IMG/VR virus record: IMGVR_UViG_2718218104_000006
Reading direction: 5' to 3' (one strand)
Source: a virus
Taxonomy: Duplodnaviria; Heunggongvirae; Uroviricota; Caudoviricetes
DNA: 58,725 nucleotides
Shown one piece after another: positions 42,001 to 45,000 of this stretch. Position numbers: made by a program. The number at the start of each line of letters is the position of its first letter. Within the stretch, counting starts at the first letter, position 1.

Positions 42001-45000
42001 GTGTGGTGTGGTGCGTTGTACTGGATTCGAACCAGTGACCGATTGCTTAGAAGGCAATTGCTCTGTCCGGCTGAGCTAACAACGCAGAATACCGATAATG
42101 GACCGCCACCGGGGACTCCGAATCTCGCACAGGGTGACGTTCTTTCCTGATGAGCTAGTGGCGGTTGGTGGCCCTTGCTGGATTTGAACCAGCGACCTGG
42201 CGATTATGAGTCGCTCGCTCTCACCGCTGAGCTAAAGGGCCGATTGCTGAATAATAACGACGCATGATTAACTCCGCAATCTCATCCGTTACGAATGATT
42301 AAATCCTGTACTTCCCGCACCGTCTGCTCAAAACGTTCAGTCTCCAGTTCAACGCCAGTTGCACGACGTCCCAGCGCCATCGCTGCTTTCACTGTCGACC
42401 CCGACCCCGACCCCATGAAGAAATCTGCAACCAGGTCTCCCGGACGACTGCTTGCGCTGATTATCTGCTGCAACATTTCTGCCGGTTTTTCGCACGGATG
42501 TTTCCCTGGATAGTACTGCACCGGTTTATACGTCCACACATCGGTGTACGGCACCTGCACCGTCACACCGAAATACCGCCGCAGATGCTTATATTCACTC
42601 TGCAGCTCCGCATACTGTCGGTTCAGAGAGGCATACGTATCCACCAGCTGGTGGTGGGGCTTTTCCAGTTCACCCCGCTGATGCTTCTCTTCTGCCACCC
42701 GGGCAAACAGTGCCTGTAATTTCAGATAATCGCTTTCGTTTGGCAGCTGCCACTGACCGGCACTGAACCAGTGCGACACCATGTTTTTCTTTCCTGTGGC
42801 ATCTGCAATCTGTTTTGCCGTTATCCCCGGGACAGCGCGCGCATCACGAAAGTAAGCAATCAGCGGGGCCATCACATGCTGTTTCAGTGTCCTACCCTTC
42901 GCCTCATACCCGGCATCTTTCGGACGATACGGCCCCTGATAATGCTCTGCGAACAGAATGCGCTCTGTGGCGGGGAAATACGCCCGCAGGCTTTCCTTGT
43001 TGCACCCGTTCCAGCGTCCGGACGGCTTTGCCCAGATGATATGGTTCAGCACGTTAAACCGCTCACGCATCATGATTTCGGTGTCAGATGCCAGACGATG
43101 GCCACAGAACAGGTAAAGACTTCCGGCAGGTTTCAGCACCCGCCAGAACTGCGCAAGACACTGGTCCAGCCACTTCAGGTAATCTTCATCACCCGCCCAC
43201 TGGTTATCCCAGCCCTCGGGTTTCACTTTGAAGTACGGCGGGTCCGTGACTATCAGGTCAACAGAATTTTCGGGTAACGACCGCATAAATTCCAGGCAGT
43301 CGGCGTTGATTAACTCACAACTGGATATTTTTACAGTATTAAGCATGGATCATTAAGCCTGTCTCTGATAGGCTCATTCTGCTTTTGCGCAAAGCAGTGG
43401 GCCTGAGGTTTGCTTGTGAACCCAACGCATGAGCAGATGGCTGGTGGGTGCCCCTTACACCCACCAGCCGCCCATTTACCACAAATAAAAAAGCCTTCAG
43501 GACTGAAGGCGTCTGTAACAACCAAACTGATAGTCTGCCAGACCCGCCATAACCAGCTGGGTCAGTATTAACTGGCAGCGTTCGCGTGAAAGGTAAGTAT
43601 TCTGCGCAATCTCCCCGACTGTCGCCGGGTCGGTAACGCTTAATTCATTAAACACCACTCTGGCGGTTTCTGTCATATCCTGCTGTTTCAGCATGTCTTT
43701 TTCCCTTTTCCGGTTAACGTGACACACCAATAACTCTTGTCGAAAAAGCCAGCAACCTGAAAGAACGGTATTAATAACCACCAGCGAATTTATTGCGCTG
43801 CTGTATATTACGGACACAAAAAAACCACCTTCCGGTGGCTTCCTTGTGCGAAAAAACTTGCATTTCGCCTCGCGATACAGCTTTGCGAAGCTTACAGGAA
43901 TTCAAGCTGTTTCTGCGTAAAAAAGCAAGCTTTTTTTATCGAAATGAATCGTGCATAGGTACATAAAGCATGTGTTCAGCCACGGCTAACCAACCTGCAA
44001 TACGTTTCTCACATGTGCTGAAACACCATTCCGGGTGAGTACGATTTAAACATTCTGCCATTTTTCTCTTACTCATTCCCCGTCCTTCGTACCTTTGCCG
44101 GAGAATATTGATTAGCCCGGGATATTCCCCAAGCACCTCACTGATAACGCGATCAATAATCAACGCCTCTGTGTCTGTACAATGTGACAACCAGCTCTTC
44201 TGCTTCCCTCTGGTCATATCCCGAAAAAATGCCTCAAGTTCCGGTTTTTCCAGCCCGGATTTCTTCATGCTGCGTAAAACCTCATTAACTGCTGTTTTCG
44301 TCAGCTTTTTCGAAACCAGTAACCGGTTAAACATATTTCCGGATTTACCCCCACCGATATACGACCACCGCCCCCACATCCGTAATTTCCCCTGGATCCA
44401 GACTGCTTCCAGCGTGTTCAGGCGTAAATGTTCGCCGCTTTTGCCTGTAATTTCCGGATATATCATATTTACGCTCACTCACTCTCAATTTTGTAAATCT
44501 TCACACCCAGCCGTCCACCAGATACTGGCTGACCACGTACAATATTGATTTCATCAAACTGCTCATCGTCCATTAACACTCCCGCATGCGTCAGCGCATC
44601 CAGCGGTGCTTTCAGAATATTGTCCAGGTCACGACGACGCTTATCCGGTGGCTCTGCAATAATTTTTATTGCCAGCCGTCCGGACAGGCTTAATTTCAGT
44701 CGCTGCTGGCGAACAATAAGCACCACTGCCCGGCGATAACGCTCCCCGGCTTTTGATACAAAATATGTGCTGCCACGGCGTCGCCAGTAAGTGTTCACCG
44801 TCGGCGGGTAAGGTAAAACCAAATCTATGAGCATCAGTCACCTCTTTTACCCGAGCACGCCAGTCGCAAAGGCGTGATCAAGAAAACGAAAAATTAAATC
44901 AACCTGGGAACCATGCTTTTCTTCGAACGCCAGCGGATCCGCATGAAGCTCGTTGTGATGCTCCCGACACAGCGGTAGCGTGAAAATATCGTGGGATTTT

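Follow-up and report, generated by a model that had tools for sequence, protein, structure and literature searches.

What does a DNA methyltransferase without a restriction partner do in the late region of a temperate phage, and how is such an enzyme kept under control? We examined this for one gene in a 58,725-nucleotide stretch of Caudoviricetes DNA (IMG/VR record IMGVR_UViG_2718218104_000006), the whole of which is called the window here. A first-pass annotation of the window had noted, at 42282-43694, a DPPY-motif methyltransferase gene lying between a Q-like gene and tRNA genes, with a small upstream gene at 43497-43694. We observed that the enzyme is a relative of M.EcoGII, that both genes and their coordinates were correctly placed, and that the most conserved feature inside the annotated region (42282-43694) was one that had been missed, a structured leader, some 140 nucleotides long, of the methyltransferase mRNA at 43347-43488. 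All features are on the minus strand unless a sign is given.

The methyltransferase (42282-43346; 354 amino acids (aa), WP_000935549.1) matched the Pfam family N6_N4_Mtase (PF01555) over residues 29-342, with E=2e-41 and 142.8 bits against a cut-off of 26.7. In beta-class enzymes, motif IV (D/N/S-P-P-Y/F/W) is followed by the recognition domain and then by motif I, FxGxG (PMC7544214). The window protein has this order: an intact DPPY at residues 35-38 (43233-43244; D35, P36, P37 and Y38 are invariant), a central recognition domain, and motif I, which begins DFFMGSG at residues 308-314 (FMGSG at 310-314). Its relatives in the PDB include RsrI, CcrM, MboIIA and DpnA, and it was matched by the PADLOC model MTase_II (E=1e-159). 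The identity to M.EcoGII was 324 of 352 residues (92%) over the full length, including the recognition domain; the reference was machine-read from a supplementary PDF (PMC11551740, Supplementary Table S1), in which single-residue differences are unreliable. The true identity is probably slightly higher, since several of the mismatches fall on family-invariant residues of that text. The closest phage record was 1720a-02 (91.8% nucleotide identity), a phage that the M.EcoGII paper itself names as the carrier of a very similar enzyme (PMC5778455). The family is large: 2979 proteins were found at E<=1e-20, and DNA matching some part of a 2.6-kb query (tRNAs, methyltransferase, small gene and Q) was present in 3389 of 5426 complete E. 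coli genomes. M.EcoGIX, the strand-specific SAY enzyme, was considered as an identity and rejected, as it is plasmid-borne. Judged by sequence, the window enzyme belongs to the M.EcoGI/GII family, and it is already known and annotated.

M.EcoGII is described in three papers (PMC5778455; PMC7544214; PMC12707154) as prophage-encoded, silent in its native lysogen and harmful when over-expressed. It acts on any adenine in DNA, RNA and DNA:RNA hybrids, and the role proposed for it is to enable the phage to overcome restriction. A specificity search of the REBASE type, suggested in the first-pass annotation, is therefore answered by the family: its members have no target sequence and modify any adenine, and non-specific adenine methylation would be expected of this orthologue, provided that this copy is active. 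A methylome study of O111 strains listed homologues of about 93% similarity as 'nonspecific' by similarity only, and uninduced cells there showed no additional motif.

The absence of a partner endonuclease was borne out. The neighbouring genes encode the Q-like protein, RusA, a DUF968 protein, two tRNAs, a NanS-p-like esterase (DUF1737/SASA/DUF6645) and a P21-type holin, and no endonuclease gene was found adjacent to the methyltransferase. The DUF968 product, which is common in lambdoid phages, gave only a sub-threshold match to HNHc_6. When the small gene, DUF968 and the NanS-like esterase were scanned with PADLOC, none matched any defence model, restriction enzymes included. The methyltransferase is an orphan, with no adjacent cognate endonuclease of the kind that defines a type II restriction-modification system. 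Such a partner is not expected, because a context-free methyltransferase has no recognition sequence.

We next considered the position of the gene. Reading the minus strand in the 42000-44500 region, the order is the Q-like gene, a terminator (t1), a 65-aa open reading frame, a second terminator (t2), a 150-nucleotide (nt) spacer, the methyltransferase, a tRNA with a CAT anticodon and tRNA-Arg(UCU), which confirms the placement between Q and the tRNAs. The segment 41900-44500 was 100% identical to eight E. coli O157:H7 chromosomes, and its counterpart in strain Sakai is the lambdoid prophage Sp9 (ECs_1778, antiterminator; ECs_1779, hypothetical; ECs_1780, DNA methylase). The Q-like late antiterminator gene (43936-44478; ECs_1778, annotated 'phage antiterminator' in Sakai) matched DUF1133 (E=1e-110), phrog_753 'anti-termination protein Q-like' (E=4e-74) and, weakly, Phage_antitermQ (E=1e-8). 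Two strong terminators separate it from the methyltransferase ATG. The first, t1 (43814-43849), has a 16-bp stem, a GGAA loop and seven U residues, in a region with a folding z of -4.5. The second, t2 (43484-43510; GCCTTCAG-TCCT-GAAGGC followed by T6AT3), was found by both the terminator scan and folding, and its stem-loop includes the stop codon of the small gene.

This arrangement was found to be general. We compared 80 methyltransferase loci, taking one genome per species, from Escherichia to Xenorhabdus, Yersinia and Ewingella. Wherever the upstream gene could be typed it was a Q antiterminator, of the 82 type (PF06323), the lambda type (PF03589) or the 21 type (PF06530), with DUF1133 in the window. 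A terminator lies between Q and the module in every aligned locus; its sequence varies with the Q type, and homology between loci begins just 3' of it. The stem of t2 covaries between loci (GCCTCC/GGAGGC, GCTGCC/GGCAGT), and where the small gene is missing, the t2 position is again occupied by a terminator. In many loci the holin gene directly follows the methyltransferase. A sigma-70 consensus scan gave no minus-strand promoter between Q and the methyltransferase. From the loci with Q82-, Q21- and lambda-type genes, a PR' promoter is predicted upstream of t1, which would make t1 the tR' of the Q-specific late promoter region. Since the module is the first cargo after Q/PR'/tR' whichever Q system is present, Q-dependent late expression is supported. 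Its location, fixed across some 80 species, thus agrees with the late-gene expression that had been proposed; the timing itself is inferred, and silence in the lysogen would likewise follow from the presence of t1 and t2 ahead of the methyltransferase.

When we examined the spacer in front of the methyltransferase, we observed that the 132 nt before the ATG were better conserved than the gene, with a mean pairwise identity of 0.80 compared with 0.71 over the first 900 nt of the gene itself. RNAalifold, followed by refinement by hand, gave a structure composed of a hairpin, P1, and a three-helix domain, P2-P4. P1 is a long hairpin (43429-43475) of 6 + 12 bp with an internal loop. The P2-P4 domain occupies 43343-43428, and its closing helix (GGTCA.CAAGC / GCTTA.CTGATC) ends directly before the ATG; the 12 nt that precede the AUG are paired in it, as is the AUG itself in the window. 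No Shine-Dalgarno sequence was visible before the methyltransferase ATG. A covariance model built from 25 sequences found exactly one copy per locus, and its match in the window was 43341-43488 (127.9 bits, E=2e-31). Loci that have no small gene retain the leader, and the terminator always lies 5' of it.

The pairing was assessed on a 79-sequence alignment, which was fitted to the covariance model and so leans towards it: 95.4% of the cells were paired, as against 29-44% when the partners were slid, and there were 15 compensatory pairs, as against 5.7+-1.7 in shuffles. In the upper part of P1, 10 of the 12 pairs covary. Outside P1, the compensatory switches were AAG/CTT to GAG/CTC, GCTTT/AAAGC to GCTG/CAGC and, in the window, a change of the outermost P2 pair from A-U to G-C. 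The window leader folds with a minimum free energy of -74.2 kcal/mol (z=-4.9), with the AUG inside P2, and the region from -13 to +3 was more paired than with shuffled upstream sequence in 32 of 37 loci. Among viral contigs, the leader core motif was followed by the methyltransferase in 112 of 120 from IMG/VR; of the other eight, four were cut by the contig end and four had no intact methyltransferase frame. A pattern scan of metagenomes gave many chance matches, so that only the 68 of 120 with a methyltransferase downstream were used. The leader pairs the start region and most likely slows or times expression after transcription.

No known RNA family accounted for the leader. With Rfam 15 there was no minus-strand match at E<=1; on the plus strand the only match, to P26, was weak (E=0.045) and lay below the gathering score. 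A SAM (S-adenosylmethionine) riboswitch or other known family was rejected accordingly. A literature search for the conserved sequence blocks found nothing relevant. The spacer was also considered as coding and rejected, since 1-nt indels between the conserved blocks break the frames. A short upstream frame at the invariant AUGGGCGG was rejected as a conserved peptide, its length varying from 6 to about 41 codons with no proper ribosome site. In the window this frame (43475-43455) reads MGGWWV*; it probably encodes no conserved peptide, and translation into P1 is possible. The covariance model missed the leaders of Xenorhabdus and Photorhabdus (L050-L081), where the spacer is about 95 nt and holds a P1-like hairpin with flanks AAATGGACGG...CCATTCGCCTGT and no P2-P4. 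Because these keep only the P1-like hairpin, the leader seems modular.

The small gene (43497-43694, 65 aa, ECs_1779, phrog_331) was then examined. It is intact as a 62-66-aa frame in 57 of the 80 species-level loci, from Escherichia to Xenorhabdus, at a fixed distance 5' of the methyltransferase, and was present in 109 of the 120 viral loci selected by their leader. It starts with MLKQQDM, has an AAGG-type ribosome site 5' of the start and, in many loci, an in-frame stop 1-5 codons upstream; on these grounds a 106-aa GTG-initiated frame was rejected as the conserved gene. Substitutions are biased to the third codon position (0.37/0.28/0.54 per position). The product has the H1-H2-H3 helices and beta-hairpin wing of a winged helix, resembling TrmB, IclR, ArsR and MarR, and only two conserved Cys. 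The suggestion that the small gene might encode a winged-helix protein thus held. The protein is most likely an accessory regulator of the module and not an enzyme subunit. The leader and the regular winged-helix companion appear to be undescribed.

We consider it probable that the locus is an M.EcoGII-type 'hypermethylation' module, giving Q-dependent, late and context-free adenine methylation of progeny DNA as a broad anti-restriction device. As the first cargo 3' of Q, the late promoter and the terminator, the module would run in the order small gene, t2, leader, methyltransferase, tRNAs and lysis genes. As long as the prophage is dormant, late-promoter transcription would halt at t1 and any leak would halt at t2; because t1 and t2 stop transcription, an enzyme that is toxic when over-expressed would stay off. 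On induction, Q-modified RNA polymerase would read through both terminators. The enzyme would then be made late in lytic growth and would methylate the adenines of replicating and progeny DNA in any context, and this methylation would blunt, in the next host, the numerous restriction systems that are sensitive to methylated adenine. By closing a start region that has no Shine-Dalgarno sequence, the leader would add its brake or timer after transcription, and the winged-helix protein would act as accessory regulator.

Several observations weigh against this picture. The helices outside P1 are backed mainly by conservation and not by covariation, and part of the sequence invariance of P1 is due to an embedded Chi site (described below) and not to RNA function. 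The occlusion of the start region is modest, with an unpaired probability of 0.38 compared with 0.47 over the 37 loci. The small gene is missing from 23 of the 80 methyltransferase loci, most of which still have the leader, and 9 of 80 near-identical small-gene loci in IMG/VR have lost the methyltransferase, so a dedicated partnership is not required. A literature search for ECs1779/ECs1780 found no transcript, expression or methylation data on the locus. Lastly, the window allele may be attenuated or dead, as two of its changes fall at otherwise invariant positions.

Compared with the common O157 allele (WP_000935548.1, 352 aa; TR01, Sakai ECs_1780), the window gene has three changes: one synonymous change, L173P and a third copy of GGGTCG. 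The repeat (42396-42413) is present in three copies in the window and in two in all relatives, and the extra copy inserts Gly-Ser directly after FxGxG, giving DFFMGSGSGSTV where the common allele has DFFMGSGSTV (GSGSGST against GSGST). The canonical spacing between motif I and the following helix (the SAM-binding loop) is therefore lengthened by two residues. The insertion was seen in none of 120 family representatives and in no viral locus. Of the 360 complete E. coli genomes in which this version of the gene occurs, 8 have the insertion and the 352 others have two units. Codon 173 (42828-42830) is CCG (Pro) in the window and CTG in the common O157 allele, Leu being the family residue. Leu173 is kept in 119 of the 120 representatives (the remaining one did not fit the search pattern), and in 182 viral loci the position was L in 163, V in 6 and G, A and S in one each, with 10 not read; Pro never occurred. 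In an AlphaFold2 (AF2) model, the Gly-Ser insertion is predicted to fall in the loop that joins strand beta-1 to the helix after it; the model, built from an 18-sequence alignment, was poor (pLDDT, the predicted local confidence score, 55) and was used only for secondary-structure positions near the insertion and L173. The (GGGTCG)n stretch is in itself a polymorphic hexanucleotide tract, which might act as a switch through strand slippage or be no more than a lesion.

Both non-synonymous changes fall at invariant sites, in a gene whose leakage is toxic, which suggests relaxed or negative selection. That the window copy is a decaying relic, dead or strongly attenuated and no longer protective, is in our view nearly as probable as that it still works: a leaky toxic methyltransferase in a prophage would select for crippling changes, toxicity is documented for M.EcoGII (PMC5778455; PMC12707154), and two lineage-specific non-synonymous changes stand against one synonymous change. 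One of these replaces a Leu that is nearly always kept, and the other, found in no other homologue examined outside the 8 genomes, adjoins the FxGxG of a motif known to bind SAM (PMC7544214). However, the 354-aa frame is intact, Gly-Ser added to a Gly/Ser loop may be tolerated, and the exact 354-aa protein is recorded on 167 contigs, which argues for stable inheritance. Inactivating mutations in the catalytic motifs had been named beforehand as one finding that would refute the proposal; the insertion after FxGxG and L173P go part of the way, while the DPPY and FxGxG residues themselves are preserved.

We then asked how closely the small gene is tied to the enzyme. Of the 80 near-identical small-gene loci in IMG/VR, 65 continue into the methyltransferase, 5 end too soon and 1 has a 5'-truncated methyltransferase. 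The nine that lost it (L203 (3196-3240), L231, L266, L267, L270, L273, L282, L241 and L277) keep the small gene and t2, and most of the leader is gone from them as well. In six of the nine, homology to the window stops at 43457, inside the leader hairpin; this breakpoint at about 43457, common to most of these loci, lies in the P1 5' arm beside Chi. A further conserved block lies 5' of the small gene, with the consensus CTTGCTG-N17-TATCTGTATGTCAC (TTGCTG-N17-TATTGGTGTGTCAC at 43719-43755 in the window; alignment of 26 loci). Located between tR' and the small gene, it is strongly conserved (L004-L049) independently of the Q family and holds a CAGA-N4-TCTG palindrome. The sigma-70 scan did not call a promoter at this block, which could be a weak promoter, an operator or an element of the 5' untranslated region.

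These observations show that the small gene is real, usually present and separable in both directions; the suggestion that it co-functions with the enzyme fails in so far as an obligate partner was meant. It may instead be independent late cargo, a regulator of something else or a host-acting nucleic-acid binder, that is linked to the methyltransferase only by a shared post-tR' hot spot. We hold this to be a real possibility, though not the one we favour. Its separability, through the 23 loci without it and the roughly nine deletions ending inside P1, fits such a cargo, as does the fact that it has a conserved upstream block and a terminator to itself. Yet the gene keeps its fixed distance in the 57 species-level loci and accompanies the leader in the 109 viral ones, and no case of it was found in an unrelated context. 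The methyltransferase-less loci, moreover, look like secondary deletions, because the first ~25 nt of the leader are retained. An accessory regulator of the module remains our preferred role for it.

Chi sites raise a different question about the leader. The window has 9, where 2.5 are expected, and 5 of the 9 lie inside 42641-43785 (1.15 kb), at 42641-42654, 43440-43468 and 43778-43785. Two of these positions are back-to-back pairs, one arising from the perfect P1 stem and the other from the codons of the invariant PHHQLV motif. In P1, the 5' arm holds Chi (GCTGGTGG) at 43461-43468 on the minus strand, the sense strand of the late genes, and its complement gives the second at 43440-43447(+). 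Of 74 species-level loci, 42 have a sense-strand Chi in their leader, and a second conserved Chi is encoded by the invariant HQLV codons of the enzyme. Across the 74 related loci, the density of sense-strand Chi was 0.84/kb within the module, as against 0.42/kb in the flanking DNA. The orientation is the active one for RecBCD entering at the right end of a lambda-like genome (by the orientation logic of PMC12315714), and the module fits the 'right-end clustered Chi' described there for lambdoid phages. Because Chi is embedded in the 5' arm, one arm of P1 is frozen and the other drifts through wobble pairs.

The spacer might accordingly be conserved as DNA, for its Chi hot spots and protein-binding sites, with the RNA structure incidental. 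The invariant 5' arm does hold Chi on the active strand, the P2-P4 region contains a perfect 16-bp palindrome (GCTTTAGCGCTAAAGC) and an invariant GATC, and compensatory changes are few in helices P2-P4. We nevertheless regard this explanation as improbable. Where Chi is lost, the pairing of P1 is kept with different sequences (GGCAGAAGAGTG/CACTGCTTCTGCC in Yersinia, GATCGGAGAG/CTCTTCCGATC in Lonsdalea), so Chi does not account for the covariation of P1 where it is absent; the 10 covarying pairs of upper P1, the switch of the inner hairpin from GCTTT/AAAGC to GCTG/CAGC and the fall in pairing when the partners are slid likewise speak for an RNA element. As for the enzyme, we give little credence to a main role in the phage cycle or host physiology (packaging or replication timing, effects of dense N6-methyladenine (m6A) on transcription, RNA methylation, evasion of or provocation by m6A-dependent type IV systems): M.EcoGII does methylate RNA and DNA:RNA hybrids (PMC5778455; PMC7544214), orphan phage methyltransferases such as phage P1 Dmt serve packaging (PMC12707154), and an elaborate leader with a DNA/RNA-binding partner suggests tight dosage control, but the literature examined held no evidence for such a role, context-free activity is what a broad anti-restriction device should have, and a gene placed first in the late operon is well suited to modifying progeny DNA.

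Downstream of the methyltransferase, the CAT-anticodon tRNA (42166-42241) is annotated in RefSeq as tRNA-Ile (ileZ type), and tRNA-Arg(UCU) (42009-42085) is of the argO type. Two prophage small RNAs follow 3' of the tRNAs, within 41630-41899: STnc100 at 41691-41899(-) (175 bits, gathering score 47) and the anti-GcvB small RNA AgvB at 41630-41689(+) (56.6 bits, gathering score 56), for which AsxR was a lower-scoring alternative. They sit where Shiga toxin (Stx) phages have stx and AsxR. Between them and the holin lies a 635-aa NanS-p-like protein (39635-41542; DUF1737, sialate O-acetylesterase SASA, DUF6645), as in Stx phages.

M.EcoGII is in wide use as a laboratory tool and serves as the textbook context-free DNA methyltransferase, yet accounts of its native control have gone no further than 'not expressed in the lysogen'. 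Of interest here is the regulatory architecture and not the enzyme, which is known, and the place after Q/tR', the second terminator, the structured leader and the frequent winged-helix companion offer testable handles on that control. The same small gene, leader and methyltransferase also lie between Q and tRNA/stx2 in many Stx2-converting phages (for example Stx2a_WGPS2, Stx2_EH2201, phiP27 and 1720a-02). The module is relevant to Shiga toxin expression, since toxin transcripts from the late promoter must cross its terminators and leader. The (GGGTCG)n polymorphism and L173P indicate that resident copies of a toxic gene can drift, and this matters when a methylome or phage host range is predicted from gene presence alone.

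Among known systems, the closest is M.EcoGII/M.EcoGI from a prophage of E. coli O104:H4 C227-11 (Murray et al. 2018, PMC5778455), which shares the beta-class order with a central helix-turn-helix recognition domain, the ~92% identity, the prophage location and the absence of an endonuclease. The same phage relatives (1720a-02, phiP27 and Stx2 phages) carry the enzyme. The window allele differs from M.EcoGII in its length (354 aa against 349), the Gly-Ser after FxGxG, L173P in the recognition domain and another C-terminal tail. The small gene, the two terminators and the leader of the native context are not discussed in the searched passages of the M.EcoGII papers. Other phage orphan methyltransferases (the Dam-type enzymes of T4, T2 and P1, the Dam of 933W/VT2 and the multispecific C5 enzymes of Bacillus phages) likewise have no endonuclease; they are expressed in the lytic cycle and protect their own DNA against restriction (PMC12707154), as is predicted for the module. 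They recognise GATC or sets of sites, whereas the M.EcoGI/GII family modifies adenine in any context.

The type II C proteins offer a second likeness, being small DNA-binding proteins encoded upstream of a modification or restriction gene and presumed to time expression. C proteins are Xre-type helix-turn-helix dimers that act on C-boxes in systems with an endonuclease; the window module has a winged helix, no endonuclease and no recognisable C-box. The module belongs with neither the restriction-modification systems nor the C-protein systems.

The com-mom operon of Mu is similar in outline: a small gene lies just upstream of a toxic, broad DNA-modification enzyme and, as is predicted for the module, the enzyme is silent in the lysogen and made late and mRNA structure occludes its start. 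Com is a Cys4 zinc-finger translational activator whose gene overlaps mom. The small protein of the module is instead a winged helix with two conserved Cys, has a terminator and ~150 nt between its gene and that of the enzyme, and is dispensable in a quarter of the loci; it has neither the Cys4 zinc finger nor the adjoining or overlapping gene of Com. Mom, for its part, is not a SAM methyltransferase, and there is no sequence similarity between the systems; Mom has been likened to M.EcoGII (PMC12707154). Com/Mom is an analogy and not a membership. We would only tentatively extend it, to a leader that is a new class of cis-regulatory RNA for M.EcoGII-type genes and that forms, with the winged-helix protein, a Com/Mom-like safety circuit keeping the start of the toxic enzyme closed until it is opened in the late phase. 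Such a circuit would require a trigger for opening: the winged-helix protein might bind, the long P1 helix might be processed or the RNA-binding methyltransferase might itself feed back; in a bolder variant, the winged helix would read densely m6A-modified DNA, making the pair a writer and a reader.

Lastly, the PR'-6S RNA-tR' region of lambda, and StxS, share with the layout predicted for this locus a Q gene, a short terminated transcript and late genes that are reached only through Q antitermination. To this common plan the module adds a second terminator and a protein gene after tR', and then a long structured leader.

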